A stretch of 64,000 nucleotides of DNA from Nannocystis bainbridge (GTDB lineage Bacteria; Myxococcota_A; Polyangia; Nannocystales; Nannocystaceae). The notes beneath the pieces were generated by a model. The model worked only from the letters and a program-made list of their open reading frames with translations. It had not been told where the DNA came from and did not search any database. Numbering within the stretch: the stretch's first letter is position 1; every line of letters starts with the position of its first letter. The position numbers were made by a program, and so were the translations under genes. The stretch covers positions 3,456,001 to 3,520,000 of the forward strand of contig NZ_JAQNDL010000001.1 in assembly GCF_028368995.1 (NCBI RefSeq), read 5' to 3'. Shown in pieces: positions 1,513 through 62,888 of the stretch.

Positions 1513-2862
1513 TCACGGGTCGAGGTCGCGGTGCGTGAAGCGTCGCTTGCCGGGGCCGTAATCGGAGGCGACCTGGCCGTGTCCGCGCAATCGCCAGCGA
1601 TATGTGAGCAGACCGTCGGCCCCGACCGGCCCGCGAGCATGCAGTTTACCGGTCGAGATCCCGACCTCCGCGCCGAGGCCGAAGCGATAGCCGTCGGCGA
1701 ACCGCGTGCTCGCGTTCCAGAACACGTCGGCCGCGTCCACCGCCGCCAGGAACCGCTCGGCCGCCGGCGCGTCCGCGGCGACGATCGCCTCCGTGTGCTT
1801 CGATCCGTGCCGGTCGATATGGGCGAGCGCGTCCGCTTCGCCGGCGACCCCGCGGATCGCCAGAATCAGCGCCCCGTACTCGTGGCCCCAATCGGCGTCG
1901 GTCGCCTTCGCCAATTCCGGGTGCAGCGCGCGGGTCCGATCGCACCCGCGCAGCTCCACCCCGCGCTCGCCCAGCGCCGCCACACAGGCCGCCAGCGCCG
2001 CCTCCGCGCCGGGCTCCCACAATAGCGCCTCGACCGCGTTGCAGGCCGCCGGATAGCCGCACTTGGCGTCGACCGCGATCGTCGCCGCCATCGTCGGCTC
2101 GGCCGAGGCGTGCAAGAAGAGGTGGCAAACGCCCTCGGCGTGGCCCATCACCGCGATCCGGGTGCTGCGCTGGACGTGACGCACGAACTCGTGCCCGCCG
2201 CGCGCGATCACCAGATCGAGCACGTCGTCGAGCGCGAGCATCGCCGTGATGTCTTCGCGCTGCTCGAGCAACGTGATCGCCGCCGGCGCGATCCCGTGGC
2301 GCTGCAGCGCTCGCTGCATCAATTCGACCAGGGCGCGGTTGCTCTCGCGCGCCTCGCTGCCGCCCTTCAGCAGCGCCGCGTTGCCGCTCTTCAGGCACAG
2401 CCCGCCGATCTGCGGCGCCGCGTCGGGCCGGGCCTCGAACACCACACCCACGAGCCCCAGCGGGCACGGCACCCGCTCGAGCACGAGCCCCTCGTCGAGC
2501 TCGCGGCGCAGCTGCGGCCGCCCGAGCAGCTCCGGCATCGCCGCCAATTGGCCGAGCCCGTCGGCGACGCTGTCGAGCTTGGCGGCGTCGAGCCCCAGCC
2601 GCTTGAGCCGCGCCGGGTCGAGCTCGCCCGCCGCCGCCGCTGCCCGCGCGGCCGCCACGTCGCGCGCGTTGGCGGCCAGCAGGCGCTCGCGCTCCTCGGG
2701 GTCGGCCAGCGCCGCGGCCACGTCGCGGAGCAGCGCAGCCCGGTCCGGCCCGCTCAGCGCCGCGAGCTGCCGCCCGGCCGCCCGGGCCGCCAGCGCCAGC
2801 GCGCGCACCCGCCCGTCGGCCTGCTGCCCGTCCTGTCCCTCACGACCTGTCGCTTGCGTCAT
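1513..2862 (-). CDS. proA: Gamma-glutamyl phosphate reductase
   Basis: VPCPLGLVGVVFEARP, LKSGNAALLKGGSEA, ACNA catalytic Cys, NASTRFADGYRFGLGAEVGISTGKLHARGPVG. Confidence 0.97.
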   Translation of the reverse strand: MTQATGREGQDGQQADGRVRALALAARAAGRQLAALSGPDRAALLRDVAAALADPEERERLLAANARDVAAARAAAAAGELDPARLKRLGLDAAKLDSVADGLGQLAAMPELLGRPQLRRELDEGLVLERVPCPLGLVGVVFEARPDAAPQIGGLCLKSGNAALLKGGSEARESNRALVELMQRALQRHGIAPAAITLLEQREDITAMLALDDVLDLVIARGGHEFVRHVQRSTRIAVMGHAEGVCHLFLHASAEPTMAATIAVDAKCGYPAACNAVEALLWEPGAEAALAACVAALGERGVELRGCDRTRALHPELAKATDADWGHEYGALILAIRGVAGEADALAHIDRHGSKHTEAIVAADAPAAERFLAAVDAADVFWNASTRFADGYRFGLGAEVGISTGKLHARGPVGADGLLTYRWRLRGHGQVASDYGPGKRRFTHRDLDP

Positions 2863-2922
2863 GTCCTCTTCACCATGTCCTTGAGCACATGTCCTCGACG
2901 ACCTGCCCTATCGGCCATCCTC
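2829..2922. repeat. 14-bp-period GGACATGTCC-like decamer array (7 units) over the proA start
   Basis: Cores CCTG 2832, CCTG 2846, CATG 2860, 2874, 2888, CCTG 2902, CATC 2916. Confidence 0.85.
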
Positions 2923-3013
2923 GAACCTCGGCCAGCGCCAGGTCCTCGCGGCCGAACGCGAGGAGATACCGAGCGCGACCGGTCCTCTCCATCACTTCGG
3001 AGCCCGGCCATCC

Positions 3014-4177
3014 TCAGACCTCGGACAGCGCCAGGTTGTCGCGGCCGATCACCGCGTCGTAGCCGCAGAACCCGAGGATGCTGGCGATCTCGCTGCTGTG
3101 ACGGCCGGCCAGCCGGCGGCACTCCTCGGACGAATAGTTGACCAGCCCGCGCCCGTGCACGCGCCCGCTGCCGTCGCGGATCTCGACCAGCTCGCCGCGG
3201 GCGAACTCGCCGTCGACGCGCACGAGCCCGATCGGCAGCAGCGACGCCTTGCGCTCGTGCAGCGCCGCGATCGCCCCCTCGTTGACGACCAGCCCCCCGC
3301 GCGCCGGCGCGCCCGAGGCGATCTGGCGCCGGTGGGCCGAGCGGCGCTGGGCCGGCGGCACGTACGTCCCGCGGTCCTCGCCGGCCAGCGCCGCCACCAG
3401 CGCGCCCGGCAGGTGCCCGCTGGTGATCAGCACGCCGATGCCCGCCTTGCTGGCCAGCCGCGCCGCCTCGAGCTTGCTGGTCATGCCGCCGGTGCCGCCG
3501 GCCGAGGTCCCCGCCGTGCGCGCCAGCGCCTCCTCGCTCACGTCGGCGAGCTCGCCGATCCGCCGCGCCTCGGGGTCGGTGCGCGGGTTGGCGGTGTAGA
3601 GCCCGTCGACGTCGGTCAAGATCACCAGCAGGTCCGCGTCGATCGCCACCGCCACGCGGGCCGACAGCCCGTCGTTGTCGCCGAACTCGAGCGCCGGCCC
3701 CGAGCCGCCCTGCCCGCGGCGGAACTCCATCAGCTCGCGCACGCTGACGCTGTCGTTCTCGTTGAGGATCGGCACCACCCCGAGCTCGAGCAGCCGCATC
3801 AGCGTGGTCCGCACGCACAGCGCCCGGTCGCGGTCGGCCAGGTCCTCCTGGATCAGCAGCACCTGCGCCGCCTTGACCCCGAGCTGGCCGAACAGCTGGG
3901 TGTAGAGCGCCATCAGGTGGCCCTGCCCGACCGCCGCGCAGGCCTGGCGCAGTCCCAGCGAATCTGGCCTCTTGGCCAGGCCGAGCACGCGCTGGCCCAT
4001 GCCGACCGCGCCGCTGCTGACCACGATCACCTCGCGCCCCTGGCGGTGCAGGTCGCACGCGGCCTCGACCAGGCTCGACAGCCGCCCGAGCGCCAGCCCG
4101 GCCTCCGGATGGGTCACGACCCCGGTCCCGAGCTTGATCACGATCCGCCGTGCCGCGGCCACGTCGCGCCGATTCAT
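3014..4177 (-). CDS. proB: Glutamate 5-kinase with C-terminal PUA domain
   Basis: RIVIKLGTG, VSSGAV, AAVGQ, PILNENDSV, FGDNDGLSA, GTGGMTSKLEAA; ATG at 4177. Confidence 0.97.
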   Translation of the reverse strand: MNRRDVAAARRIVIKLGTGVVTHPEAGLALGRLSSLVEAACDLHRQGREVIVVSSGAVGMGQRVLGLAKRPDSLGLRQACAAVGQGHLMALYTQLFGQLGVKAAQVLLIQEDLADRDRALCVRTTLMRLLELGVVPILNENDSVSVRELMEFRRGQGGSGPALEFGDNDGLSARVAVAIDADLLVILTDVDGLYTANPRTDPEARRIGELADVSEEALARTAGTSAGGTGGMTSKLEAARLASKAGIGVLITSGHLPGALVAALAGEDRGTYVPPAQRRSAHRRQIASGAPARGGLVVNEGAIAALHERKASLLPIGLVRVDGEFARGELVEIRDGSGRVHGRGLVNYSSEECRRLAGRHSSEIASILGFCGYDAVIGRDNLALSEV

Positions 4178-10732: not shown

Positions 10733-11701
10733 ATGCCGCGCTACCTCGTCACCGCCGATCCGGTCGCCAGCTTCCAGCCGCGCTTCGATACGACGTTGCG
10801 CCTCATGGCCGAGCTGCTGGCCCGCGGCGTCGAGGTCGACTACTGCGACCTGTTCACGACCGACATGTCCCTCGGGACAGATGATTGGCTCGCCGCCCTG
10901 CCGGTCCGTTCGGTGCTGTGGAGCGACCCCTCACGCCCCCCGTACGTCGGCCTCGACGCCCCGCGCAGCGCCGCCGCGCTCGACTACGAGGTCCTCGTCC
11001 ACCGCAAGGACCCGCCGGTCGACGCGACCTACCGCGGCTGGGCCGAGCGGTTCGCGGCGCTCGACGGGCGGCTGCTGCAGCTCAACGAGCCGGCCGAGGT
11101 GCTGCGGCACTCCGAGCACCTGCTGCCGGCGCGCTTCCCCGAATTCTCGATCCCGACCTTCCACTGCCGCGAGTTCGGCGAATTCGCGGCGACCGTGCGC
11201 AGCCAGCCGGTCGAGGCCGTGGTCAAGCCGATCGCCGAGTGCAGCGGGATCGGCATCGCCTTCTTCCGCCCCGACGCGTCCGAACCTGTCCTTCGGGGCT
11301 GGTGGCAACAATACGGCGAGGCCGTGGTGCAGCCGTATCAGGAGGCCGTCACCACCCGCGGCGACCTGCGGATCTTGACCATCGGCCGGCGGATCCTCGG
11401 CAGCGTCACCCGGCTCCCGCGCCCGGGCTCGCGGCTCGCCAACCTCCACCAGGGCGCGTCGTACCACGCGTTCGACCCGACCCCGCGCCAGCTCGAGGCG
11501 GTGGCCGCGGTCACCGCCGAGCTGGTGCCTCGCGGCCTCTACCTGCTCGGCCTCGACTTCATCGGCGACCTGCTGTCCGAGGTCAACTTCACCAGCCCCT
11601 CGGCGATGGTCCAGATCGGCGAGGTCATGCACAAGCGCCCCGAGGTCGAGCTCGTCGACGAGATCGAGGCGCTCCGCCGCACCTTCGTCGCGCGCCCCTG
11701 A
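10733..11701 (+). CDS. gshB: Glutathione synthetase-like ATP-grasp enzyme
   Basis: DTTLRLM, RKDPPVD, ANLHQG, GLDFIGDLLSEVNFTSP match GshB motifs; divergent overall. Confidence 0.75.
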   Translation: MPRYLVTADPVASFQPRFDTTLRLMAELLARGVEVDYCDLFTTDMSLGTDDWLAALPVRSVLWSDPSRPPYVGLDAPRSAAALDYEVLVHRKDPPVDATYRGWAERFAALDGRLLQLNEPAEVLRHSEHLLPARFPEFSIPTFHCREFGEFAATVRSQPVEAVVKPIAECSGIGIAFFRPDASEPVLRGWWQQYGEAVVQPYQEAVTTRGDLRILTIGRRILGSVTRLPRPGSRLANLHQGASYHAFDPTPRQLEAVAAVTAELVPRGLYLLGLDFIGDLLSEVNFTSPSAMVQIGEVMHKRPEVELVDEIEALRRTFVARP

Positions 11702-17690: not shown

Positions 17691-18852
17691 TGGGGAGTTC
17701 CTTTCTTCTCTGCTCTCGGGCGCGACGTGGGAGGATTCCCCCGTCGTGCTGTGTAGGAATATTCAGCCGCCCCAGAACGTGGGCAATGTCGAGTTGTGGC
17801 CCGGCGCATACCCGACGTCCCGCCAAACTGCCGGCGACGCGGGATTGCGGCGGCGCAGACCCGCGAATTCGCGGCCGCGTCGAGCCCCGGCCGGAACGCG
17901 GCGGGAGCGGCGTCGGCGGCCGTTTGGCGGTGTTCGTGGGCAAATATCGCCGCCGCCCGCCGCGCTCCTACATTGCTCATACCGTGTCACCCCGATCCGG
18001 CAATATCGAGGCCGCCGACCCGCTCGCACAAACAGGTATCTTCATTGACTGTGCGGCGCGGTCGCGGCGGCCTGCGGAGGGCTCCGCGCACCCACGAGTG
18101 GATTCCGCCCGCCAATAGGGCCTTCTAAAGGGTGGATATGCCATTCAACCATACAAGTCGCGTCTATCATGACACCGTTGATTTACACCACTGTGGCCGG
18201 GCCGCGCGCGAGCCATCATCACACATGTCCCAAGGGACATTTCATTTTTAAAGAGAAGGGGTGCGCTCGGCGGCGCGGCCACGGCGGTACGAGGCTGTCG
18301 GCGCGACGCTCGACGCGCTCGCGGCGGCTCCGCCCACTCGTTTCACTGGCTCATGCGCGCCCGCTCTGCGCATCGGTGCAGGGCCTCGCAGCGGCTCGGA
18401 CGGACAGGCGCTCGCGTCGTTCGCCCGCGTCATCTGCCCGCGGGGTGGCTCGCCGCTCCGGCCCCGCTGGGGCCCTCGCCGACGCGCACGCTGGCTCTGG
18501 CCGCGCCTCGGCCTCGGCGCACCCGGCAACCATCCTCCGGGCACATCGCCGCCCGGCGCCGCGAGGCCGACGACCGCCTCGCGCCCACCCGCACATGCCC
18601 CTTCGTGCATGTCCGAAAGAACATGCGCACCTAGCGCGGCAGGACTCGCTCGCTCGCCGGGCTCGCCGTCCGCGAACAAGGCCGCCTGGTCGTCCGTGGC
18701 CCGGCGCCCCCGACCGTTCCTCGCTCCTCGGCCGCTTCACGGGCTCTGGCTCGCCAGGCAAATCCCTTCGATGAAACTTGGGGGCCTTCGCCCACTGGCG
18801 CGCGTCCGCCACCCCGCCCATAGTTCCGCCCGCTCCAACAAGGACGATACCG

Positions 18853-25098: not shown

Positions 25099-26064
25099 TC
25101 AGCTCGGCCGCTGGGCCAGCAGCACTTCGGACAGCGGCCGGCGCGGCGTCGGCGGCGTGTCGGCGCCGCCGCCGAGGCGGACCAGCGCTTGCGCGCGGCC
25201 GGTCGCTCCGACCAGGCTCGCCAGCTGCTTGCGGCCGGCGGCGTCGGCCAGCGGCAGGTGCAGGAAGCTGCCCCAGGCGTGGTCGACCCGGGCGCGCAGC
25301 AGCACGCGCATCAGCGCCTGGCCGGCGCGCAGCCACTCGGCCGGCTCGTCGCCCTCGGTGGTCACGAGCACGAACGCCGGCGACCCGTCGGCGATCGCCT
25401 GCCCGCGGGCCTCGCCGCCGTCGGGGCCCTCGAAGCTGACCCCGGGCTCCCCGGCCGCGGCGCGAGCGGCCGTCCGGGCGCTCGGCTCGCCGGCGATGGC
25501 CGCCTCGACGGCCGCCGCGATGGCTTGCCTTCGGGCCATGTCCTCCACCACATGGTACTCGGCACCTGTCCCATCGACCATGTGCTTGAGCCGCCGCGCC
25601 AGCGCCCGCGACAGCGGCCCCTGGGCCATCACCCCGCGGTAGGTGCGGCGCTTGGGCGCGGCCTGATACAGCCACTGCTCCTCGGGCAGCGGGCTCGCGC
25701 GGCCGCCCACCGCCACGCGCGCCAGCAGGTCGGGGTGGCCGCCGGGCAGCAGCGCCGTCTGCTCGTCGAGGCCGAGCGCGCGCAGGGTCACCCGCAGGCC
25801 CGCCAGCGCCGCGCCGCAGGCCAGCGCCGCCGCTTGACCCTCGGGGTCGGCCTCGCCCCCGGCGCGCGCCGGATCGGCGTACAGCTCGATCACCTCGCCG
25901 CCGACGAACCACCGCCACGGCTGGGCGTTGCCGGGCGACGGGGCCGTCAGCGCGGTGTGCAGCGCCAGCTCGATGCGCGCGCGCGGGCCCGCTTCGGGCG
26001 CCAGGGCCGAGCCGGCCAGCGTCCACGGGTCGGCGTCGCGCGCCAGGTCCGGCGCCTGGATCAC
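25099..26064 (-). CDS. Acg-like nitroreductase-family FMN-binding protein
   Basis: APSPGNAQPW, ACGAAL, RRTYR, WLRAGQALMRVLL, LVRLG...TPRRP; GTG start overlaps the upstream TGA (GTGA). Confidence 0.85.
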   Translation of the reverse strand: MIQAPDLARDADPWTLAGSALAPEAGPRARIELALHTALTAPSPGNAQPWRWFVGGEVIELYADPARAGGEADPEGQAAALACGAALAGLRVTLRALGLDEQTALLPGGHPDLLARVAVGGRASPLPEEQWLYQAAPKRRTYRGVMAQGPLSRALARRLKHMVDGTGAEYHVVEDMARRQAIAAAVEAAIAGEPSARTAARAAAGEPGVSFEGPDGGEARGQAIADGSPAFVLVTTEGDEPAEWLRAGQALMRVLLRARVDHAWGSFLHLPLADAAGRKQLASLVGATGRAQALVRLGGGADTPPTPRRPLSEVLLAQRPS

Positions 26065-30227: not shown

Positions 30228-30554
30228 TTACCTTTGAATCATGTCCTCGGAGACAGGTACTTTAGGACATGACCCAAAGCGCTCGTCGAATTCGGCCCGC
30301 AGGCGCGCGGCCGCAGCCGACGGATCGGGGCACGGGCCGACGCTGGTGCGGCACAGCCACGGCGCCGCGGGGTGCCTCTCGTTCAGCTCGGCGGCGAGGC
30401 CGGCGACGTCGGCGGCGCCCGCGTAGACGACCATCGCGCTCTTGCCTCGCGGGTAGCGGACGAGGCCCTCGCGCAGGCGGACCTGCAGCACACCCGCGGC
30501 GGGCGGCAGGCGAGCCGCGGCCTCGGACAGCGGGACCCAGGGGCCGAACTTCAT
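30228..30554 (-). CDS. Small hypothetical protein (weak GIY-YIG-like pattern)
   Basis: LPPAAGVLQVR...VVYAG...FDERFGSCP; GC3-rich codons. Confidence 0.6.
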   Translation of the reverse strand: MKFGPWVPLSEAAARLPPAAGVLQVRLREGLVRYPRGKSAMVVYAGAADVAGLAAELNERHPAAPWLCRTSVGPCPDPSAAAARLRAEFDERFGSCPKVPVSEDMIQR

Positions 30555-32295: not shown

Positions 32296-33039
32296 TCACC
32301 CGAAGGCCGGCTCGCGGCCGTCGAGCGTGCCGGCCGCGCCGACCGCGGCGAAGCGGAAGAACAGGTCCTCGGCGAACCACCGCCGGGCCAGCGCCGCGCG
32401 GGCCGCCGCCTGGTGGTTCGAGCCGGCCCACGCGAATTGCTCGAGGCTGTCGGCGTCGTCCCACACGCTGAACGTGACCGGGCGGATCCACGGCAGCTCG
32501 CCGATCCCCAGCGCCGCGCGCAGGCCGGGCGCGCGCACCAGCCGGCTGTTGATCGCCGGCACCCGCGACCAGAAGTTGAAGAACCCGCGCAGGCGCAGGC
32601 GCGCCCGCGTGATCGCGACCATGGGTAGCCTTTGGGGCAGGTCCGAAAGGCCAGGTCCGAACGGACAGGTCCCGCCCCAGCTACCGCGGCCGCGCGCGGT
32701 CAGCAGCGCCAGCGTCCACGCCTCGCTGGCGCGCGCGCGGTAGTCGGCGAACAGCGCGCTGCGGGCGAAGAAGTCCGCGAGCACATGCTCCGAAGACCAG
32801 GTCGCGACCAGGGCGTAGCGCGACAGGTCGGGCTTCGCCGAGAAGCCGAGGCCGCCGCCGCTGCCGCACAGGCGCCAGAACTGCAGGCCCGGGGTGGCCG
32901 CCAGCGGGGCGCGGGCGCGGCCCATCTGCTTGAAGGCCCACAGCCGTCGGCCGGGCGGGAACCGCAGCACCGTGACCGTCGTGATCGTCGCGCCGGGCGG
33001 CGGGCGATGGACCCACCGGAGAGCGTGCTCGCCCGGCAA
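32296..33039 (-). CDS. Spheroidene monooxygenase (CrtA)-like protein
   Basis: FWRLCGSGGGLGFS, RGSWGG, AITRARLR, FW..VP, GIGELP, TFSVW, H...WFAEDLFFRF. Confidence 0.75.
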   Translation of the reverse strand: MPGEHALRWVHRPPPGATITTVTVLRFPPGRRLWAFKQMGRARAPLAATPGLQFWRLCGSGGGLGFSAKPDLSRYALVATWSSEHVLADFFARSALFADYRARASEAWTLALLTARGRGSWGGTCPFGPGLSDLPQRLPMVAITRARLRLRGFFNFWSRVPAINSRLVRAPGLRAALGIGELPWIRPVTFSVWDDADSLEQFAWAGSNHQAAARAALARRWFAEDLFFRFAAVGAAGTLDGREPAFG

Positions 33040-34042: not shown

Positions 34043-34275
34043 GGACATGTCCCTTCGGACATGTTAAAAAGACGCGGAGCGGGAATCACAGGCACGTTAG
34101 GACATGTCCGAACGTGCATGTTCGGAGCCGAGCGCCGGCGGCACCGTCTCCGCGAACGTGCGCGACCCATGGCGAAAGCGCCCAGCACCGTCGCCGCTCC
34201 TCGTGTTGCGCCTGTCACTCAGGACATGTCGAAAAGCACATTGTCACAAGCACATGTACTTTGGAACATGTCCAA
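34043..34275. repeat. Dense cluster of 14-bp-period decamer arrays (2+3+5 units)
   Basis: Cores at 34046/34060; 34089/34103/34117; 34211/34225/34239/34253/34267. Confidence 0.88.
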
Positions 34276-37274: not shown

Positions 37275-39427
37275 CGCTGCGCGGCGCGACGCCCCTGCGC
37301 GTGGCCCTCGCGGGCAACCCGAACGTCGGCAAGACCAGCCTCTTCAACGAGCTGACCGGGTCGCGCCACAAGGTCGGCAACTACGCCGGCGTCACCGTCG
37401 AGACCCGCGCCGGCGCCGTCGTCGCTCGCCTCGCCCCCGCGCGGCCGATCACGATCGTCGACCTGCCCGGCACCTACAGCCTCACGCCGATCGCCGAGGA
37501 CGAGGCCGTCGCGTTCCGCTGCCTCACCGGCGCCGACGACCAGCCGCCCGACGTCGTCGCCCTCGTGCTCGACGCCGCCAACCTGGCCCGCAACCTCTAC
37601 CTCGCCGTCCAGCTGCTCGAGCTCGGGCGCCCGCTGGTCGTCGCCCTCAACATGATGGACGTCGCCGCCGAGGCCGGCGCACCGGTCGACCCCGCCGCCC
37701 TGGCCCGCGCCCTCGGCGTGCCGGTCTTGCCGACGGTCGCGCGCACCGGCGAGGGCATCGCGCGCCTGGTCGAAGGGCTAGGTTCCATCGAACATGTCCC
37801 TTCGGACACCTCGCCGCTGCGCGCCCGCCTTCTGACGGGCGACGACGCCGTGCCGCCGCCGCCCGGGACCGAACTGGCGCGCTGGCGCTGGCTGGTCTCG
37901 GCGGCCGCGGCCGGCACCCTCGACCTGGCCGCGCCGACCGCCGACGAGCGCGTCGCTCTGGCCGCGCTGGCGCCCGCGGCCGTGACCGCGGCCGCGCACG
38001 CGCGGGTGATCGCCCGCTACCGCGAGGTCGACGCCCTGCTGGCCGAGCTCGGCTTCACCGCCGCCCAGCGCGAGCGGGCCCCGGCGATGACCCGCTCGGC
38101 GGCGATCGACCGCGTGCTGACCCACCGCGTGTGGGGCCTGGCGATCTTCGTCCTCGTCATGGCGACGATCTTCAGCTCGATCTTCACCTGGGCCGAGCCG
38201 ATCATGGGCGCGATCGAGGCGCTCATCAGCTGGCTCTCGGGACAGGTCCGCGGACCGCTCGGGCCCGGCGTCTTCACCGACCTGCTGACCCAGGGCGTGA
38301 TCGCCGGCGCCGGCAACGTGCTGGTGTTCGTGCCGCAGATCGCCCTGCTGTTCCTGCTGCTCGGCCTGCTCGAGGACTCGGGCTACATGGCCCGCGCGGC
38401 GTTCCTGGTCGACCGGCTGATGGCCAGGGTCGGCCTGCACGGGCGCGCCTTCGTCCCGCTGCTGAGCGGCTACGCCTGCGCCATCCCGGCCATCCTCGGC
38501 ACCCGCACGATCACCGACCCGCGCGACCGCCTGGCCACGATCCTCATGATCCCGTTCATGAGCTGCAGCGCGCGCCTGCCGATCTACGTCCTCTTCATCA
38601 GCGCGCTGTTCCCCGCCGACGACCGCGTCGGCCCGTTCACCGTCGGCAGCCTCATGCTGGTCGGCTTCTACGCGCTGTCGACGGTGTCGGCCCTGCTCGT
38701 CGGCGCGTTCTGGAAGCGCACCGCCCTGCGCGGCCCGACCCCGCCGTTCGTGCTCGAGCTGCCGCCGTACCGGCTGCCGCGCCTGCGCAACACCCTGCTC
38801 CACGTCTACGACCGCACCGCCGACTTCGTCCGCCAGGCCGGCACCGTCATCCTCGCGGTCACCGTCGTGCTGTGGGTGCTGCTCAGCTTCCCGCGCCCGC
38901 CCGACGCGCCGCCGGTGCCGGTCGACGTCGACCCGGTCGCGCATGTCGAGCCGGACATGTCCGAAACGCCAGACTCGCCGACCCCGCCGCGCGACGAGGA
39001 CTCGCCGATCGTGCACTCGATCGGCGGCCGGATCGGCAAGGCGATCGAGCCGGCGCTGCTGCCGATGGGCCAGGACTTCCGCATGGGCATCGCCATCCTC
39101 GGCAGCTTCGCCGCCCGCGAGGTCATGGTCAGCACGCTCGGCCTGGTCTACGGCATCGAAGAGGACGACGACGACCAGACCTCGCTGCGCGAGAAGCTCC
39201 GCGAGGCCCGCGAGCCCGACGGCTCGCGCCGCCACACCCCCCTGAAGGGCCTGGCGGCGATGATCTTCTTCGTCTACGCCTGCCAGTGCATGTCGACGCT
39301 GGCGGTGGTGCGCCGCGAGACCGGCGCGTGGAAGTGGCCGCTGGTGATGTTCACCACCATGTCGGCCCTGGCCTACGCGCTGGCGGTGCTGGTCTACCAG
39401 GTCGGCCTCGCGCTCGGCTACACCTGA
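37271..39427 (+). CDS. feoB: Ferrous iron transport protein B
   Basis: GNPNVGKT, NYAGVTVE, DLPGTY, NMMD, LEDSGYMAR, MSCSARLP, FVLELPPY, AREV. Confidence 0.97.
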   Translation: MTLRGATPLRVALAGNPNVGKTSLFNELTGSRHKVGNYAGVTVETRAGAVVARLAPARPITIVDLPGTYSLTPIAEDEAVAFRCLTGADDQPPDVVALVLDAANLARNLYLAVQLLELGRPLVVALNMMDVAAEAGAPVDPAALARALGVPVLPTVARTGEGIARLVEGLGSIEHVPSDTSPLRARLLTGDDAVPPPPGTELARWRWLVSAAAAGTLDLAAPTADERVALAALAPAAVTAAAHARVIARYREVDALLAELGFTAAQRERAPAMTRSAAIDRVLTHRVWGLAIFVLVMATIFSSIFTWAEPIMGAIEALISWLSGQVRGPLGPGVFTDLLTQGVIAGAGNVLVFVPQIALLFLLLGLLEDSGYMARAAFLVDRLMARVGLHGRAFVPLLSGYACAIPAILGTRTITDPRDRLATILMIPFMSCSARLPIYVLFISALFPADDRVGPFTVGSLMLVGFYALSTVSALLVGAFWKRTALRGPTPPFVLELPPYRLPRLRNTLLHVYDRTADFVRQAGTVILAVTVVLWVLLSFPRPPDAPPVPVDVDPVAHVEPDMSETPDSPTPPRDEDSPIVHSIGGRIGKAIEPALLPMGQDFRMGIAILGSFAAREVMVSTLGLVYGIEEDDDDQTSLREKLREAREPDGSRRHTPLKGLAAMIFFVYACQCMSTLAVVRRETGAWKWPLVMFTTMSALAYALAVLVYQVGLALGYT

Positions 39428-39504
39428 CCTGGCCCTGTGAGCATGTCGGATCGGTCATGCCCGATCGGACCTATTCGAATGGACCTGTTCTTTCGAACAG
39501 GTCC
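39425..39504. repeat. 14-bp-period decamer array (6 units) between convergent feoB and mscL
   Basis: Cores at 39428, 39442, 39456, 39470, 39484, 39498. Confidence 0.85.
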
Positions 39505-40578: not shown

Positions 40579-41763
40579 ATGCTCCGCGCCGCCCTCGTCC
40601 TCGCCGTCGCGCTCGCCGGGACCGCCTGCAACGCGCCTGCGCCGGCCCCTGCCGCCAAGCCCGAGGCCGCCCCGAGCGCCCAGCCGACCCCGCAGCCGGC
40701 TCCGCCCGCGCCCGCCCCGGCGCCCGTCAGGGCCCGCGACCCCCTGTGCGAGGCCGGCGCGGCCCCCCTGGCGGCCCTGCGCGCGCACACCGGCGCGGCG
40801 TCGATCGCCTACGCCGGCACGCCGCTGCAGCAGTGGGTGGCGGCCAGCGACGCCGCCACGGGCCGTCACGACGACGCCGCGATCGCCGCGGTGCTGGTCG
40901 ACACCACCCCCGCCGGCTTCGCCTTCGTGCGCGCGCGCGTCGAGGGCTCGATCGCCCAGTGGATGCGCGACCGCCTCAAGCACGCCGCCGACGACAAGGA
41001 CGGCCGCGACGCCGCGTGGGCGGCCGCTCGCTGCGCCTGGGACGTGGCCCTGAAGCCGCTCGCGGCCGAGGTCGCCGGCGCCGAGCCGGGCCTCGCCGAG
41101 GACATCGACGCCGCCTTCGCCGCGGGCGAGGCGGCGCTCGCCGGCGGTGATACGACCGCGATCGACAAGGCGCTGCTGCCGGGCCACGAGGTGATCGAGA
41201 AGACCTGGTTCCGCCTGGCGCACCACCGCTTGATGCAGGCGCTGGCCGACGCGAAGGAGCACGGCGACCCGGTCCCGCTGGCCCGCGCGCGGGCCGTGTT
41301 CGAGGACCTGCGCGACCGCCTGAAGGACCGCAACAGCCCCGGCATCGCCGTCGTCGAGCTGGCCCTCGCGGCCCCGCCGAACAAGGTCGACGCCGCCAAG
41401 GTCGAGCGGGAGATCGCCGTGGCGGTGGCCAAGCGGGCCCGCAAGTACTGCGACGAGGCCCTCACCCCGGCCGCCAAGGGCCCGCTCGGCAGCGCGGCGG
41501 CGATGGCCACCACCGCCGAGGGCACGGCCTATACGCGAATTGTCCTTTCGGACATGTCCGAAAGGCTCAAGGACCAGGGCTTCGACGCGGCGGCGCACCT
41601 TCAGGCCTGGCAGGGCTACGCCGAGGCGGTCGCGGAGGCCGACGCCGACGAGGCGAAGCGGCTGAGCGGCGAGCTCGTGCAGTGGAACTGCGCCTACCAG
41701 CGCGCCCTGGCGATCCGCGAGTGCACGTCGTCGGCCGACGAGGTGTCGACGACGACACCTTGA
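40579..41763 (+). CDS. Helical hypothetical lipoprotein
   Basis: GTAC lipobox, Pro/Ala linker, Ala-rich helical body, GC3-rich codons. Confidence 0.75.
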   Translation: MLRAALVLAVALAGTACNAPAPAPAAKPEAAPSAQPTPQPAPPAPAPAPVRARDPLCEAGAAPLAALRAHTGAASIAYAGTPLQQWVAASDAATGRHDDAAIAAVLVDTTPAGFAFVRARVEGSIAQWMRDRLKHAADDKDGRDAAWAAARCAWDVALKPLAAEVAGAEPGLAEDIDAAFAAGEAALAGGDTTAIDKALLPGHEVIEKTWFRLAHHRLMQALADAKEHGDPVPLARARAVFEDLRDRLKDRNSPGIAVVELALAAPPNKVDAAKVEREIAVAVAKRARKYCDEALTPAAKGPLGSAAAMATTAEGTAYTRIVLSDMSERLKDQGFDAAAHLQAWQGYAEAVAEADADEAKRLSGELVQWNCAYQRALAIRECTSSADEVSTTTP

Positions 41764-42548
41764 AGTCTCCCGCATCACGCGCATCGAGCTCGACCGCGGG
41801 GCCGTGATTCTCGCGGTCGTCACGCGCAGGCTCGAAGGCCTGGGCGCGGGCCGTGATCGAGGTGTGTCGCGCGTGGCCTCGTCGGGATGAAACCTCGGTC
41901 ACCCGAGTCGCAAATTTCGCAGCGCGCATGAACTCGGATTCATGCGCCGGCGCCCGCGACCACCCGCGCTGCGGGCCTCGAAGTCAAGTTCGAAGAGGTA
42001 TCGAAGCCGTCATGCGCCGATGCCTCATGCCCTCGCGGTGCGCCGCATCATGGACAGCCCGACGAGGTCACGTCGTCGCACGAAGTCGAGTGTGTCCCCG
42101 TCGACACCCACCCGCGCTCGATCGATGAATCGGGCCTGGAAGCGCCCGTTTACGCCATCTTTAGCCACATTGATGTCGCCTTGATTTGACGATCCGGAGC
42201 CCTCGCCAATGGTTTCGGCATGCGCCACACAGGACTCGCCGCCCGCATGATTTTCGCCGAACGCTTCACGGCCGCCGTCATCGATCGGCCGTTCTACGCC
42301 GGACTCAAGATGGTCGCCGCACGCCCGCGCGTGAACGAGCCGATCGTCGTCGCTCCCGCCGAGCCCGCAGTGGCTGCGCCGATGCCGCGCGCGGCCTAGC
42401 CGGTCGGACCCCTCGGTCCGGCGCGCTGGTCGGCGCGCCGCGCGTCGCACCGTCTCTCCAACCTTCGGCTGCTTTTCACCTTCCTCAAAGGACATGACCC
42501 TTCGAGCATGTGCTCAGGGCCATGTCCTTTCGTCGTACCCGCCGGCGC

Positions 42549-46723: not shown

Positions 46724-46775
46724 AAACCTGGCCTCAAGGGCATGTCCCAAAGAACATGTCCATGAAGACATCTCA
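46724..46775. repeat. 14-bp-period decamer array (4 units)
   Basis: Cores at 46727, 46741, 46755, 46769. Confidence 0.8.
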
Positions 46776-46954: not shown

Positions 46955-48130
46955 ATGACGGACGGCGACTCACTCGGCGTGCACGACCTCCCCGAAGCCA
47001 CTGACACCCCCGCGACGGACGGGACCTCGCTCGAGCTGCGAGTCGTCGACGGCATGCCGACCTGGTTCGGCCGCCGGCTCGCGCGCGCGCTGCTGCGGCT
47101 GGTCAGCATGGAGGAGAACAAGCCCGCGCAGCTGACCCAGGTCGTCACGCCGACGGCCGGCTATTTCCGCCGCGACCGCCACGTCCACCCCGCCGTCGAC
47201 CCCGGCACCTACCGCCTGCAGATCACCGGCGTCGCCACCCCGCGCGTCCTGACCCTGCCCGAGCTGCTGGCCCTGCCCCGCGAGACCCGCGTGTGCGTGC
47301 AGGAGTGCGCCGGCAATGGCAACCACCTCCAGGGCTCGGCCGGGCTGTGCGGCCAGGCCGTTTGGGAGGGCCCGAGCTTCGCCAGCCTGCTCGAGCTGTG
47401 CGGCGGCCCGGGCCTCGCCACGCACTTCGCCTGTCACGGCCTCGACGACCTCGGCTTCCTCAAGCGCGGCTACCACTACGGACTGTCGCTCGACGAGCTC
47501 ACGCGCGCGCGGGCGATCGTGGCCGTGACGATGAACGGCGAGCCGCTGTCGCGCCGCCACGGCTTCCCGTCGCGCCTGATCGTGCCGCGCATCTACTCGA
47601 TGTCGCACGTCAAGTGGCTCGGCCACATCGAGGGCAAGACGCAGCCGCACATGGGCATCCACAACCGCTTCGTCTTCACCAACAAGGAGAAGCGCGGCGA
47701 CAAGTGGGTGCGCGTGCAGGCGCGATGGATCGGCCTCAAGTCGATCGTGTCCGACTGCCGCGCGGCCCAGGGCGGCGGCTGGCTGCTGCGCGGGGCGGCG
47801 TGGGGCGGCGAGCGCCCGGTCGCCGCCGTCGAGGTCAGCACCGACGGCGGCCTCTCGTGGCAGCGCGCCGACCTGCGGCCGATCTCCGAACAGGTCGCCC
47901 GCGACGCCCGCCTGGCCTCCGGCGAGGTCGACGGCGCGTGGTCGGTGTTCTCGTTCCGCTGGCAGCCGCCCGGCCCCGGCACCTACAAGATCGGCTCGCG
48001 GGTGATCGACGCGGACGGCAACGTCCAGGCCCTCGACAACGACCCCAACGTGCACGGCCACTTCAACCAGACCCGCGTCAAGTGGCGCATGGTCACCGTG
48101 CCCGAGAACCGGCTTCCGGCTGGCGCTTGA
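46955..48130 (+). CDS. Sulfite-oxidase-family molybdopterin oxidoreductase
   Basis: ECAGN Mo-ligand Cys, MNGEPL..HGFPSRLIVP, VKWL, VEVSTDGG.SW. Confidence 0.9.
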   Translation: MTDGDSLGVHDLPEATDTPATDGTSLELRVVDGMPTWFGRRLARALLRLVSMEENKPAQLTQVVTPTAGYFRRDRHVHPAVDPGTYRLQITGVATPRVLTLPELLALPRETRVCVQECAGNGNHLQGSAGLCGQAVWEGPSFASLLELCGGPGLATHFACHGLDDLGFLKRGYHYGLSLDELTRARAIVAVTMNGEPLSRRHGFPSRLIVPRIYSMSHVKWLGHIEGKTQPHMGIHNRFVFTNKEKRGDKWVRVQARWIGLKSIVSDCRAAQGGGWLLRGAAWGGERPVAAVEVSTDGGLSWQRADLRPISEQVARDARLASGEVDGAWSVFSFRWQPPGPGTYKIGSRVIDADGNVQALDNDPNVHGHFNQTRVKWRMVTVPENRLPAGA

Positions 48131-48182
48131 GACATGCCCTGAAGGGCATGTCCTGGCGGGCATGCTCATCCGAGCATGTCCG
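48130..48182. repeat. 14-bp-period decamer array (4 CATG units)
   Basis: CATG at 48133, 48147, 48161, 48175. Confidence 0.88.
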
Positions 48183-52166: not shown

Positions 52167-52172
<6 letters not shown>

Positions 52173-52230
52173 GTTCTGAAGTTCCTGTTCCTGAAGACCT
52201 GGCGGGAAGGACCTGTCCTGAAGGACTGGC
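52167..52230. repeat. 14-bp-period decamer array filling the intergenic gap and covering the ATG
   Basis: Cores CATG 52170, CCTG 52184, 52198, 52212. Confidence 0.8.
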
Positions 52231-54446: not shown

Positions 54447-54736
54447 GGCTGCGGCGAGCCGAGGCGCGGACACTGCATGTCTCGGAGGACAGCCGACTGC
54501 TTCGGACGCCTCGACCACGGCGTCGGCTGCGGTGAGCCGAGGTCTCGGTCGCTACATGTCCTGAAGGACAGCCGACCGCTTCGGGGCGCCACGTCTGCGG
54601 CTGCGGTGAGCCAAGGTCCCGGTCGCTACATGTCCTGAAGGACAGCGACTGCTTCGGAGGCCTCGACCGCGGCGTCGGCTGCGGTGAGCCGATCGGTCGC
54701 CACATGTCCCGAAGGACAGCCACTGCTTCGGGCGCC
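54447..54736. repeat. 74-78-bp tandem repeat (~4 copies), each with a CATGTCC-N4-GGACAG pair
   Basis: ggctgcggYgagcc at 54447, 54525, 54599, 54677; CATG at 54476, 54555, 54629, 54703. Confidence 0.9.
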
Positions 54737-56068: not shown

Positions 56069-56150
<82 letters not shown>

Positions 56151-56175: not shown

Positions 56176-56910
56176 GTGACGTCGCTCCAGAGGCTTTGCG
56201 CGTGGATGTGTGGATTCGCGGTGATCGGCTGTTCGCAGCCGGCCGGTTCGCAGAAGACGGAGCCCGAGGCCAAGGGTGCGGCCGCGGAGCCCGCGAAGGG
56301 GACCGAGGCCAAGGCGCCGGAGGCCCGGGCCGCGGCGCAGACGACCTCCGGTCAGGTCCGCAGCGACGTGGCCCTGCCGCTGCCGGCCCTGCTCGGGCAG
56401 CCGGTCCTGTCGGTCGAGCCCAACTTCGGCGAGCACCAGGGCAAGGGCATGGCCCGCACGACATGCGTCCGCTTCGCGCCGGAGCGGACCTTCTTCCGCT
56501 GCACCTTCGCGCTCCAGCGCTACGCCGACAAGGGCGACGAGTGGGCGGGCATCCGCGTCGAGTACGAGGACGGCCTGGCGGCCTCGATCGGCTTCGACGG
56601 CTATAAAAAGGGGACCGGTCCGTTCGACCCGAAGGTGCTGCTGCGGGCCGTGGGCCTCGAGCTGCCCGACGAGCCCCGGGCCGACGCGCCGGCGGAGGGG
56701 GTGCGCCGGTGGGCGTGGTTCAACGACCGCGCGCGCCTCAAGATCGGCGAGCACCAGTACCGCGTCGAGATCTCGGTGGTCGGCGACGACTGGGCCCGCA
56801 GCCGCATCGACGTGGTGCGCAACGAGCCGCTGACGCCGGAGCAGAAGGCCAAGATCGTGCCGCCCGGCGCGGGCAAGCCGGAGATCAGCGAGCCGCCGCC
56901 AGGGCCGTGA
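56176..56910 (+). CDS. Hypothetical lipoprotein
   Basis: VIGC lipobox, Ala/Glu/Lys linker, GC3-rich codons. Confidence 0.7.
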   Translation: MTSLQRLCAWMCGFAVIGCSQPAGSQKTEPEAKGAAAEPAKGTEAKAPEARAAAQTTSGQVRSDVALPLPALLGQPVLSVEPNFGEHQGKGMARTTCVRFAPERTFFRCTFALQRYADKGDEWAGIRVEYEDGLAASIGFDGYKKGTGPFDPKVLLRAVGLELPDEPRADAPAEGVRRWAWFNDRARLKIGEHQYRVEISVVGDDWARSRIDVVRNEPLTPEQKAKIVPPGAGKPEISEPPPGP

Positions 56911-56934: not shown

Positions 56935-57015
56935 CCACCTGGCCTCACGGGCATGTCATCAAGGACATGTCATGAGTAACATGTCGCTCGGGGCATGTCC
57001 TTTCGGGCATGCCCA
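56935..57015. repeat. 14-bp-period decamer array (6 units)
   Basis: CCTG 56938; CATG 56952, 56966, 56980, 56994, 57008. Confidence 0.9.
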
Positions 57016-58437: not shown

Positions 58438-58561
58438 GACGTGCGAGGGTAACTCAATGGCGCGAGCGCGCCCGCATGCCGCGGGCGCGCTCGACACAGC
58501 TCCTCGGTTATCAGCGTTAGGCGCTCCCGAACGGCGTTCACCGCCCGGGAAGCGGCCGACG

Positions 58562-59838: not shown

Positions 59839-59840
59839 CG

Positions 59841-61567: not shown

Positions 61568-61990
61568 ATGCAGATCGGCCTGTTCGGCTTTGTCATCGCC
61601 GCGCAAAACCCCACCACCAGCGCGCAGTGGTTCGTCGAGCACTTCGGCTTCGCCGTGGGCGTCGACATCGGCTGGTACGTCAACCTCCAGCACCCCGGCC
61701 ATGCGAACGTCAGCCTCGACTTCGTCCAGCGCGACCACGACTCGTGGCCGGTCGCCGCCCGCGGCAAGCAGGTCGCCGGCTCGCTGGTGGCCTTCCTGGT
61801 CGAGGACGTCGACGCCGAGCACGCGCGGCTGCGCGAGGCCGGTCTGACGATCGTGCTGCCGCCGGTCAGCGAGCCGTGGGGTCAGCGGCGGTTCCAGATC
61901 GCGGCGCCGGACGGCCTGTTCGTCGAGGTCCTGCAGCGCGTCGCGCCCGATCCGTCGTGGCTGGCCGCGCACGGCCTGGGCCCGCAGTGA
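61568..61990 (+). CDS. VOC/glyoxalase family protein
   Basis: WFVEHFGF, VEDVDAEHARL, EPWGQRRF..APDG. Confidence 0.9.
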   Translation: MQIGLFGFVIAAQNPTTSAQWFVEHFGFAVGVDIGWYVNLQHPGHANVSLDFVQRDHDSWPVAARGKQVAGSLVAFLVEDVDAEHARLREAGLTIVLPPVSEPWGQRRFQIAAPDGLFVEVLQRVAPDPSWLAAHGLGPQ

Positions 61991-61993
61991 GTC

Positions 61994-62127
61994 GTCGCAA
62001 TGCCGCGGGGTGACGCTCACGCCAGCGTTGGCTCGCGCGCGGGCAAGTGAACGCGGCCGTCGCAATGCCGCGGGGTGACGCTCACGCCAGCGGTGGCGCG
62101 CGCTCGGGCAAGTGGACGCGGCCGTCG
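61994..62127. repeat. 65-bp tandem duplication of the thiD-like 3' end
   Basis: gtcgcaatgccgcggggtgacgctcacgccagcg...gggcaagtgRacgcggcc at 61994 and 62059. Confidence 0.85.
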
Positions 62128-62888
62128 ATGCCGGGCACGCAGCGGGTGCGGACCACGTCGAGCCAGGCCACCGCGGCGCTGATGGCCGCCAGCATGTGGC
62201 GGCCCTGCGCCAGGCCGCAGGCGATCGCCGTCGCCAGGGCGCAGCCGGTGCCGCGCGGGTCGGGGCCGGCCACGCGCGGCCGCTCGAACACGTGGACCTG
62301 TCCCGGGAGACAGGCGATGTCACGGACCCGCTCGTGGCCCACCACCGCGCTCTTGAGCAGGACGCCGGCGCGGCCGAGCGCGTCGGCGGTGCGCTGGTCC
62401 AGCTCGGGGTCGTCCTCGGTCGAGCCGGTCAAGGCCGCCGCCTCGTGGCGATTGGGCGTCACGAGCCATGTCTCTTCGGACATGTCCCGAAGGCAATCTC
62501 GCAGGATGTCCGCGCGCGCGCCGAGGTCACCGCCGTCGGAGGCCGCGAGCACCGGATCGATCACCACCGGCACGCGGCGAGACGCGACCTCGTCGAGGAC
62601 CGCCTCGACCAGCGCCGCCGGCAACAGGCCGATCTTGATCGCGCGCGGCGGCGGCATCGACCGCAGCTCGCGGATGACCGCGGCCGCCGAGCGCGGCTCC
62701 GCCGACGCGGGGCGACCGTGACCCTGGCGCGTCCACGCGGTCACGACCCGGGCCACCGGCACGCTCGGGGCACAGGCGCCGGCCGTGAAGGTGTCGCGCA
62801 AGATACCGGCCCCGCCGGTCGGATCGAGGCCGGCGAGCAGCCACAGCGCGGTGGCGTGGCTTGAAGTCTCGGGTACACTGCGGACCAT
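62082..62888 (-). CDS. thiD: Hydroxymethylpyrimidine/phosphomethylpyrimidine kinase-like protein
   Basis: AGLDPTGGAGILRD, IKIGLL, VIDPVL..S.GG, LVTPNRHEA, RGTGCALATAIA; start uncertain. Confidence 0.82.
   Translation of the reverse strand: MVRSVPETSSHATALWLLAGLDPTGGAGILRDTFTAGACAPSVPVARVVTAWTRQGHGRPASAEPRSAAAVIRELRSMPPPRAIKIGLLPAALVEAVLDEVASRRVPVVIDPVLAASDGGDLGARADILRDCLRDMSEETWLVTPNRHEAAALTGSTEDDPELDQRTADALGRAGVLLKSAVVGHERVRDIACLPGQVHVFERPRVAGPDPRGTGCALATAIACGLAQGRHMLAAISAAVAWLDVVRTRCVPGIDGRVHLPERAPPLA

Follow-up and report, generated by a model that had tools for sequence, protein, structure and literature searches.

Phased palindromic arrays in the window and the genome

The window analysed in our study is a stretch of 64,000 nucleotides from the soil bacterium Nannocystis bainbridge that holds short palindromic units between and within its genes. 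The original prediction described these as clusters of a decamer repeated at a strict 14-bp period. The following features were found (all coordinates refer to the window):

978..1001: weak two-unit PWM array, one unit with a CCTG core
2829..2922: seven-unit array flanked by a glutamate-5-kinase-like gene (3014-4531, minus strand), whose 3' end faces it, and by the next gene; two units in four relatives versus seven here
10866..10879: single TGTCC-N4-GGACA module, no mismatches
18221..18244: two-unit PWM array, folding as one hairpin module, then a T-rich run
18591..18628: three-unit PWM array
25534..25585: three- to four-unit array within a coding frame, reading ...HMVDGTGAEYHVVEDMA..., kept in five of five relatives
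30237..30274: three-unit array; two to three units in five of five relatives
32635..32672: three-unit array with CAGG cores in a 247-aa gene (32296-33039, minus strand), encoding GGTCPFGPGLSDLPQ
32781..32804: two-unit array in the same 247-aa gene
34043..34273: three arrays (two, two and four units) in one shared non-coding stretch
35281..35304: two-unit in-gene array, kept in relatives
36020..36043: two-unit in-gene array, kept in five of five relatives
37795..37808: single module
38939..38962: two-unit array within a FeoB-like gene, in the part for its variable C-terminal tail; one to four units in relatives
39425..39504: six-unit array between convergent FeoB-like (plus strand) and MscL-like (minus strand) genes; its first unit holds the TGA stop
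41541..41554: single module
42490..42527: three-unit PWM array
46724..46775: four-unit PWM array
48130..48181: four-unit array in a convergent junction, beginning with a molybdopterin-oxidoreductase-like gene's stop codon; two perfect hairpins when folded
52167..52218: three- to four-unit array separating two genes of the same strand
54478..54718: four single modules, one per copy of a 74-bp tandem repeat
56445..56468: weak two-unit array; one unit or none in relatives
56949..57014: five-unit array immediately past the 3' end of an FAD-linked oxidase gene (57019-58497, minus strand), or six-unit if a degenerate CCTG unit at 56935 is counted; four to six units in four relatives
62299..62312: single module, one mismatch
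62464..62487: two-unit in-gene array, kept in five of five relatives

Out of 31 clusters predicted, 19 were recovered as PWM arrays. Eight turned out to be single TGTCC-N4-GGACA modules, each made of a complete decamer and a further half (10866, 37795, 41541, 54478, 54557, 54631, 54705 and 62299), and four lack support (19569, 28220 and 45649, which are weak, and 28700, with one unit only). The phased arrays themselves are real. In the window 23 CATG-CATG distances are 14 bp, 11 are 28 bp and 7 are 42 bp, with at most 4 at each remaining distance up to 60 bp. Moreover, 28 matches to TGTCC-N4-GGACA with at most one mismatch were counted versus 1.75 +/- 1.22 in 100 dinucleotide shuffles of the window, none of which reached 28.

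The signal is far larger in the whole genome (11.05 Mb in five contigs), where the predicted autocorrelation peaks at 14, 28 and 42 bp appeared with little at 13 or 15 bp. CATG pairs number 3,736 at 14 bp, compared with 72 at 13 and 262 at 15, and further multiples of 14 give 2,073 (28), 1,586 (42), 751 (56) and 383 (70); the 14-bp peak is absent for seven other palindromic 4-mers in the genome. PWM matches scoring above 10 form 2,508 pairs at 14 bp versus 17 at 13 and 7 at 15. Arrays of period 14 with at least two units number 3,440 and those with at least three 1,533, whereas the control periods 12, 13, 15 and 16 give 245, 168, 269 and 144 with at least two units and 10, 4, 4 and 1 with at least three. 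Therefore, chance could account for about one tenth of the two-unit arrays but not for the longer ones, as had been anticipated.

The decamer has the consensus GGRCATGYCC and is followed by four variable, A+T-richer bases. Its elementary module is the 14-bp inverted repeat TGTCC-N4-GGACA, of which the genome holds 1,987 exact copies, compared with 16 for N3 and 5 for N5; half-sites in the other orientation with 2- or 4-bp gaps occur only 14 and 13 times. Copies that abut without a gap produce the decamer GGACATGTCC every 14 bp; half-site spacing in arrays is exact, at 0 and 4 bp. Abutting modules reach 12 units, and the periodicity is carried out to five to six units. The degenerate parts are the outer halves of the terminal units, with CCTG at the left end and CAGG at the right. 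In total the genome contains about 3,400 arrays and 10,300 units, or about 0.94 units per kb. Array sizes fall steadily (1907, 606, 359, 273, 196, 74 and 15), and among the period-14 PWM arrays neither multiples of three units nor even numbers are in excess. The proposed 42-bp quantum of three units was thus not borne out.

Genomic position and change between species

The arrays mainly follow stop codons at a distance of a few to some tens of bases and occupy more than half of the convergent junctions. With crude gene calls from GC3 and codon usage, 24.7% of arrays are in convergent context versus 1.9% of random positions, while the divergent context is depleted (0.3% versus 1.0%), as are the regions upstream of genes. 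A median of 11 nt separates an array from the stop codon before it. An array was present in 617 of 1,149 convergent regions (54%), compared with 703 of the 3,280 tandem and 126 of the 1,004 divergent ones. About one tenth (156 of 1,533) fall within open frames, with all three phases represented. The arrays are distributed evenly across the five contigs and cluster in no region. Gene 3' ends and convergent regions are also simply the places that best tolerate extra DNA, which counts against the protein-bound reading given below.

A survey of relatives, as had been suggested, revealed the motif in all ten Nannocystis genomes surveyed and essentially nowhere outside the genus. Pattern matches range more than 10-fold, from 7 to 848 per Nannocystis genome, several of the low counts coming from fragmented assemblies, and the density in genome G000 is about twice that of its sister species. 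Many arrays stay at one orthologous site in all five relatives. At orthologous sites unit number turns over quickly: the site at 39425..39504, for example, has six units here and 3, 2, about 2 degenerate, 0, 0 and 0 in relatives. Intergenic arrays added sequence length and replaced none. Comparison with distant homologues shows no indel at the in-gene array at 32635, which was formed by substitution and changed the encoded residues from GAAPFA-like to GTCPFGPG. Three kinds of local change act on the arrays: substitution in place, slippage, which gives direct copies, and fold-back, which gives inverted ones.

Between G000 and G007, for which 59 of 310 arrays were alignable, intergenic substitution was 0.088 in the core (34/388), 0.340 in the spacers (87/256) and 0.144 in the flanks; the in-gene values were 0.048 (12/248), 0.238 (34/143) and 0.097. 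Core and spacer differ with p = 3e-15 (intergenic) and 5e-8 (in-gene), the CATG core changing about four times more slowly. Selecting the arrays for their motif match in G000 biases the constraint estimate downward, but the core rates, even doubled, remain below the spacer rates. The core is held by constraint at the sequence level and the spacers drift; sequence, not structure, is kept in the units. Arrays share 522 spacer pairs versus 553 +/- 14 expected. Each array has private spacers and therefore the arrays are no copies of a master element.

A candidate protein-bound repeat and its alternatives

Complementary positions between neighbouring units amount to 6.86 of 10 versus 6.73 in shuffles, mutual information between them is below 0.02 bit, and no strand or spacer-orientation bias relative to transcription of the upstream gene was found. 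Together with the exact spacing and the conserved core, this fits dimers on double-stranded DNA in phase. We tentatively favour Nannocystis-specific, dispersed and strictly phased palindromic repeats bound in register by a candidate dimeric protein that would act at the ends of transcription units. A sequence-specific dimeric protein may read the motif as double-stranded DNA and occupy neighbouring modules in register, and the bound arrays could serve as a read-through barrier or a supercoiling handle. Contigs from two RNA libraries span the array at 52167..52218, which speaks against that array, at least, being an absolute stop, although as contigs only they are weak evidence. The 5-N4-5 geometry is one we take to be typical of helix-turn-helix dimers, e.g. 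FNR/NtcA-type or PadR-type proteins. As for the predicted protein-binding code, the sequence evidence agrees with it, but the protein was not found; there are four divergent-context arrays, and the genes beside the three examined are not DNA-binding.

It is possible, if on the unlikely side, that the motif gathers through genome-wide machinery (biased DNA uptake or a sequence-specific repair or conversion bias) without local function, surviving where it is least harmful, i.e. in 3' intergenic DNA and tolerant gene stretches. The even spread of units, the restriction to one genus, the more than 10-fold differences in lineage density, the mutually independent units with private spacers, the residue-altering array at 32635 and the presence of arrays within open frames whatever the phase would all suit such a drive, and if continuing it also predicts core conservation. 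The genome has ComEC and DprA genes, but their presence says little because each occurs in most bacteria (10 and 11 of 14 control genomes). However, the strict 14-bp register with abutting modules of up to 12 units is not known from the uptake signals DUS and USS, many arrays stay at the same orthologous site in five of five relatives, and intergenic arrays lengthen the DNA instead of replacing sequence. In turn, and against the protein-bound reading, the fast turnover of units and the variation within the genus look more like drive or selfish spread than like a fixed function.

Adjacent units can form hairpins, as the original prediction stated: stems are 9-11 bp with tetraloops, with folding z-scores of -2.6 to -5.5 in six of the seven arrays folded. 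We nevertheless consider it rather improbable that the arrays act as RNA hairpins, i.e. as factor-independent or factor-assisted terminators or as mRNA 3'-end stabilisers, serving both strands between convergent genes. Their start shortly past stop codons and their presence at 54% of convergent junctions would agree with this, as would a small excess of exactly inverted neighbours (70 versus 13.6 expected, of 3,988) and, on the sense strand, a slight excess of U.G-compatible over C.A-type bases (T 0.64 at position 8 versus A 0.57 at position 3). However, compensatory covariation is almost nil, a loop length of 4 is held far more strictly than stability needs, spacers lack orientation bias, even unit numbers are not preferred, and about one tenth of the arrays are inside genes. 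Degenerate arrays fold barely better than shuffles (z -1.6 in the seventh). A U-tract is lacking, with at least five T in the next 10 nt for 2.7% of 1,017 arrays and the upstream side no lower.

Loading or condensation sites of a chromosome-organising or segregation system, comparable to parS, matS, NBS or ram, are very unlikely. The protein-binding evidence (spacing, no covariation, core conservation) is shared with the dimeric-protein reading, but the sites number thousands, lie evenly over five contigs without regional clusters, follow gene ends rather than chromosome regions and lack a 42-bp quantum. Presence and unit number, moreover, differ between sister species. The suggested analogy to parS, matS, Noc or RacA sites is not supported, given these points, the 24.7% of arrays in convergent context and the 7 to 848 matches per genome. 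It is hardly credible that a transposase spread the repeat as a classical mobile miniature element (REP/REPIN or MITE): many palindromic copies at extragenic 3' positions in species-dependent number would suit it, but the evidence is already largely against it, with no match to the Y1/RAYT transposase PF01797 in a genome 90% complete, no conserved flanking tag or target-site duplication at the arrays, spacer pairs common to different loci not above chance, and one in-gene array formed without insertion.

Comparison with known repeat systems

Repeats resembling msDNA are reportedly dispersed in Nannocystis exedens (Lampson and Rice in 1997, Lampson et al. in 2002 are said to describe them), i.e. 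in the same genus. In this genome, a type XIII retron RT is preceded by a hairpin-coding stretch that has six dispersed partial copies of 41-72 bp and contains neither a decamer array nor a 14-bp period. An msDNA origin of the decamer arrays, which the original prediction had wanted excluded, was accordingly rejected for this genome. Its retron msd-like repeats form a low-copy family of their own with a long GC-rich hairpin, unlike the decamer arrays.

We found no description of this Nannocystis repeat family in print. REP/BIME elements occur in enterobacteria and pseudomonads, and REPINs are mobilised by RAYT transposases. The Nannocystis repeat resembles REP/BIME in its short palindromic units, its hundreds to thousands of copies mostly outside genes, its position past the 3' ends of genes and at convergent junctions, and arrays varying in unit number between strains. 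However, it lacks a GTAG or CGTC tag, a conserved flank and a RAYT gene, and its module is 14 bp (20-40 bp in REP/BIME), itself symmetric and abutting its neighbours in exact register. Its spacers are private to each array and it is therefore no copied element. REP/BIME elements have been proposed to act, among other things, in termination, in mRNA stability and as binding sites for gyrase or IHF (PMC3733652), and the role proposed here for bound arrays would resemble these.

The uptake signals of Neisseria (DUS) and of Pasteurellaceae and Haemophilus (USS) are likewise about 10 bp long, occur about once per kb, are genus- or family-specific and evenly spread, often form inverted pairs 3' of genes and have in-gene copies made by substitution. 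The Nannocystis motif differs in being palindromic and strictly phased; to our knowledge, DUS and USS include no palindromes and no strictly phased arrays. Abutting short boxes, symmetric or repeated, with a fixed period are also known from MetJ met-boxes, omega and ParG/ParR arrays, where dimers bind cooperatively side by side. Those arrays are confined to a single locus or a few, located upstream of genes or in plasmid centromeres, whereas the Nannocystis repeat occupies thousands of loci and is depleted upstream of genes. Taken together, the arrays look like an undescribed cousin of REP and uptake-signal repeats, probably a sequence-recognised REP/BIME- or DUS-like repeat bound in register by a predicted dimeric protein.

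Period and module of the repeat

In the window, CATG tetramers were found 14 bp apart 23 times, 28 bp apart 11 times and 42 bp apart seven times, and every other distance of up to 60 bp occurred four times or fewer. A pattern search for TGTCC-N4-GGACA allowing at most one mismatch gave 28 matches there, compared with 1.75 +/- 1.22 in dinucleotide shuffles. The same period was seen throughout the source assembly (11.05 Mb, five contigs, 71.5% G+C), where 3,736 CATG pairs lay 14 bp apart versus 72 at 13 bp, with harmonics up to 70 bp. For seven other palindromic tetramers the 14-bp peak was absent genome-wide and the codon period alone was seen. The arrays of the original prediction are present in the sequence as described, with an excess at 14, 28 and 42 bp over other distances.

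A PWM was trained on units with an in-phase CATG on both sides, which avoids circularity in the core. Its consensus is GGRCATGYCC plus four variable, A+T-richer bases. In total 10,347 units were counted in the 11.05 Mb, and at period 14 there were 3,440 arrays of at least two units and 1,533 of at least three. The same procedure at control periods 12, 13, 15 and 16 yielded 144-269 arrays of at least two units and 1-10 of at least three; period 21 yielded 1,550 and 71, and is an unclean control since the gap rule admits true 42-bp spacings. Nineteen of the 31 clusters initially named in the window were recovered as PWM arrays and eight as single modules, and four found no support. The proposed three-unit quantum of 42 bp was not seen, as array numbers fall steadily with size (1907, 606, 359, 273, 196, 74, 15, ...) and favour neither multiples of three nor even numbers.

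The outer halves of the terminal units are degenerate, left ends reading CCTG and right ends CAGG. For this reason a 5-N4-5 module, TGTCC-N4-GGACA, with copies that abut without gaps, is the more fitting description; the decamer with a 4-bp spacer, as it was first put, is this module in another phase. The module occurs 1,987 times in the genome, its N3 version 16 times and its N5 version five times, and the perfect decamer 956 times. In roughly half of the modules the match is longer and reads ACATGTCC-N4-GGACATGT, and flanks further out carry no information.

Position, constraint and distribution

Genes were called by GC3 and codon usage, and the context of every array was read from its 240-nt flanks.

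Context of arrays of at least three units (share of arrays; share of random positions)
Between convergent genes: 24.7%; 1.9%
Directly 3' of one gene, non-coding DNA beyond: 33.6%; 18.0%
Between divergent genes: 0.3%; 1.0%
In-frame coding signal on both sides: 13.4%; 44.7%

Arrays were present in 617 of 1,149 convergent regions (54%), 703 of 3,280 tandem and 126 of 1,004 divergent ones. The first unit followed the stop codon at a median of 11 nt, with a phase-locked peak at which a CATGA or CCTGA unit supplies the TGA stop. This placement suggests an association with transcription-unit ends. Counted along the contigs, density was even on all of them (15-92 arrays per 200 kb), and the genes beside the window arrays were ordinary housekeeping genes (FeoB, MscL, glutamate 5-kinase, FAD-linked oxidase, BadF/BcrA-type ATPase). 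Moreover, 156 of the 1,533 arrays lay within open frames that matched the phase of their coding flanks, giving GTGP/EGHV/EDMS-like peptides. The arrays matter for annotation in two ways: the first unit often contains the stop codon, and translation of about 10% of arrays yields such peptides. Three seven-unit arrays, identical over 174 nt (100% identity), were located at C2:835, C5:711212 and C5:716599 on two contigs of the genome. The two on C5 are oppositely oriented and separated by about 5.3 kb near a contig end, which suggests that they border a repeated operon, possibly rRNA, where the assembly is interrupted.

Further features of the window
54445-54767: 74-bp tandem repeat, about 3.9 copies (152-bp higher order), one TGTCC-N4-GGACA module per copy, upstream of the gene at 52231-54084 (-)
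22143-22434: 65-bp tandem repeat, 4.5 copies, 89% matches, TRF score 493, located between two large ORFs or at their ends
23422-23660: 21-bp tandem repeat, 11.3 copies, TRF score 350, within a long open frame; a 7-residue repeat if the surrounding frame is the translated one
52231-54084 (-): large, well conserved ORF of 617 aa without Pfam family, 95-96% DNA identity across the genus
1513-2862 (-): large, well conserved ORF of 449 aa without Pfam family
56069-56150 (-) and 63307-63389 (-): tRNA genes, the only Rfam matches in the window

Substitution rates were compared between this genome and a relative (G007) in the 59 of 310 arrays that proved alignable; of the others, 241 lacked an anchor pair, and poor flanks, low identity or indels excluded 10.

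Substitutions per site (CATG core; outer six bases; spacer; flanks)
Intergenic arrays: 0.088; 0.197; 0.340; 0.144
In-gene arrays: 0.048; 0.132; 0.238; 0.097

Core and spacer rates differed with p = 3e-15 in intergenic and p = 5e-8 in in-gene arrays. A first pass found anchors in 60 of 127 arrays, and the smaller first counts agree. Motif rates are biased downward because the arrays were selected by their match in the source genome, and with these rates doubled the core still lay below the spacers.

For the survey of Nannocystaceae and beyond that had been proposed, we used the double decamer with at most two mismatches as pattern and its reversal as control. The motif proved to be genus-specific: all ten same-genus genomes carried it (7-848 matches each, the source genome having most), whereas the other genera of the family gave two matches, both in one of 14 genera. 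None was found in 16 genomes from other families, and the reversed pattern gave zero or one match. Among 185,579 species, each represented by one genome, the exact pattern occurred in 78 stretches, by title 64 from Nannocystis, nine from one Nannocystaceae MAG, two from one Myxococcales MAG and three unrelated singletons, which equal the chance expectation. In viral contigs (IMG/VR) one stretch had the exact pattern, with one small array at its end. A comparable repeat with another sequence was not seen in 160, 120 and 120 kb sampled from three sister-genus genomes (G013, G024 and G011). The one strong repeat signal in these samples was a CRISPR array and not an analogous element; it lies in G013 (locus L063, contig C19, about 32.8-36.3 kb) and has at least 40 repeats of 36 bp. 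Our literature search found no description of the 14-bp-phased repeat.

Origin of the arrays

Five relatives are syntenic with the window (86-90% identity). Some arrays, mostly in-gene ones, are retained in all five, including their spacers. The FeoB/MscL junction carries 6, 3, 2, about 2 degenerate, 0, 0 and 0 units in the genomes compared, and in the array-free ones the two stop codons nearly touch. The array at 2829 has seven units versus two in four relatives. Among 3,988 informative pairs of neighbours, exact direct copies numbered 44 versus 13.2 expected and exact inverted copies 70 versus 13.6, and young 14-, 42- or 56-bp repeats occur in a few arrays. According to this small excess, slippage and fold-back duplication happen, and no more than a few per cent of units stem from them. 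Copy-paste of multi-unit masters was rejected as spacer pairs common to different loci were not in excess (522 versus 553 +/- 14 expected); BLAST pairs of 100% identity were segmental duplicates at contig ends. Across the segment of the in-gene array at 32635, alignment with homologues of as little as 37% identity needs no indel. The motif was therefore written by substitution into an existing W-G-x-x-P-F-G stretch, with a change of residues.

Repeats resembling msDNA were reportedly described in Nannocystis exedens in 1997. Two type XIII retron RTs are encoded in the source genome, and at about 2832-2921 of locus L020 on contig C1, upstream of one of them, lies a hairpin that we take, from its position and inverted repeats, as a putative msd; six dispersed partial copies of it (41-72 bp, 93-100% identical) echo the N. 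exedens repeats and are unrelated to the 14-bp arrays.

Partial msd-like copies in the source genome
C1:364921
C1:2632478
C1:3643565
C2:635856
C2:2194328
C5:287627

The 14-bp arrays were absent from the putative msd hairpin and from all six copies, one of the two retrons being compared. An msDNA-derived origin, which the original prediction wished to see excluded, was accordingly not found in this comparison with the resident hairpin and its six copies. Rfam gave nothing meaningful at the retron loci. Three further RT genes, L017 (C1:3394425), L018 (C2:1697652) and L019 (C3:907422), have identical scores and frames of 636-666 aa; their best PADLOC match is the generic RT model, with Cas1-fusion and homing-endonuclease models ranking below. 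Probably the three are copies of a single mobile group II intron.

Interpretation and comparison with known systems

The exact spacing, the conservation of sequence and not of structure, and the lack of strand bias argue for recognition of double-stranded DNA by a symmetric reader. They point to adjacent modules that would be occupied in register by such a candidate. We tentatively rank first a protein-bound 3'-end element of REP/BIME type with a predicted binder. A more far-reaching form, rather unlikely in its entirety, is a punctuation system: a predicted sequence-specific protein would polymerise along the modules in a fixed 14-bp register at transcription-unit ends. Occupying some 3,400 sites and over half of the convergent junctions, it would act as a chromosome-wide roadblock terminator or topological insulator and replace canonical hairpin-plus-U terminators, and the motif would be made in place by selection, even in coding sequence. 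Next to the divergent-context arrays of at least three units, no DNA-binding candidate was found among the neighbours of the three arrays examined out of four. These neighbours were a cupin/JmjC protein, an EamA transporter, a semialdehyde dehydrogenase, a phosphofructokinase, an ERG4/ERG24-like protein, a ClpS-like protein and two without family. A lead to CATG methylation through a D12-class methyltransferase was given up, since 34 of 41 relatives have the enzyme, some of them from genera that lack the motif, so that the two do not co-vary.

If a protein reads the arrays, they would be a rare bacterial genome-wide DNA 'punctuation' signal at gene ends. A function-free drive of the DUS/USS kind comes second and is less likely. 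DUS/USS are short genus-specific motifs, evenly spread at about one per kb and also found inside genes; likewise, the Nannocystis units are genus-specific, evenly spread (10,347 in 11.05 Mb) and, at 32635, arose inside a gene by substitution. Genes for ComEC and DprA are present, and their presence is uninformative on uptake bias. A drive would be a new example of recognition bias, one that inscribes a motif at thousands of sites, protein-coding sequence among them, in a group (the myxobacteria) from which no such signal is known. The geometry of whatever recognises the motif would then be visible in the phased arrays. Either way, a good part of the non-coding sequence at the ends of genes in these genomes (11-13 Mb) is explained by the arrays, which are also a ready genus marker in metagenomes.

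That the arrays act as RNA hairpins is unlikely. Hairpins do occur in folded arrays, and neighbouring units are nearly independent (mutual information <0.02 bit; complementarity 6.86 versus 6.73). The spacers are not preferred tetraloops of the transcribed strand, GAAG and CTTC (65 versus 56) and CGAA and TTCG (51 versus 49) showing no orientation. Intrinsic terminators are GC-rich hairpins followed immediately by a U-tract on the transcribed strand. Rho-independent termination was dismissed since at least five T in the next 10 nt followed 2.7% of 1,017 oriented arrays, compared with 4.8% upstream. Among metagenome contigs, those from two RNA libraries span the array at 52167.

The segregation or nucleoid code put forward in the original prediction is now very improbable. 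Sites such as parS, matS, NBS and ram number few to tens and are restricted to a chromosomal region, and the analogy fails on thousands of sites at 15-92 per 200 kb on every contig. Least probable of all is a transposase-driven element. MITEs have terminal inverted repeats, a target-site duplication and copies with common internal sequence. Here, identical flanking 4-mers (3.9% versus 1.25% in shuffles) came from internal units only, two-unit arrays and singletons being at chance; with no target-site duplication and with common spacer pairs at 522 versus 553 +/- 14, a MITE was ruled out. CRISPR, with 24-48-bp repeats, unique spacers of similar length, few loci and cas genes, is ruled out by the 10-bp repeat, the 4-bp spacer and the thousands of loci, and the sister-genus CRISPR looks quite different. 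Further comparisons are the operator geometries of FNR, NtcA and PadR and the arrays of MetJ, omega and ParG.

REP/BIME elements are high-copy imperfect palindromes, mostly extragenic and 3' of genes, in genomes with a Y1 (IS200/IS605-type) RAYT transposase. In REP elements, one end of the palindrome carries a conserved four-base tag, GTAG or CGTC (PMC3733652). In contrast, the flanks of the 1,987 Nannocystis modules hold less than 0.1 bit per position past the ACA/TGT extension, with no GTAG/CGTC tag. The Y1 family PF01797 gave no match in the source genome (90.5% complete), and the control search matched six of 14 genomes. With neither Y1 transposase nor tag, a RAYT-type REP was ruled out. 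The likeness to REP/BIME lies in the other properties, as the Nannocystis repeat is also high-copy, palindromic, mostly extragenic and 3' of genes, with 3,440 arrays that reach 54% of convergent junctions.
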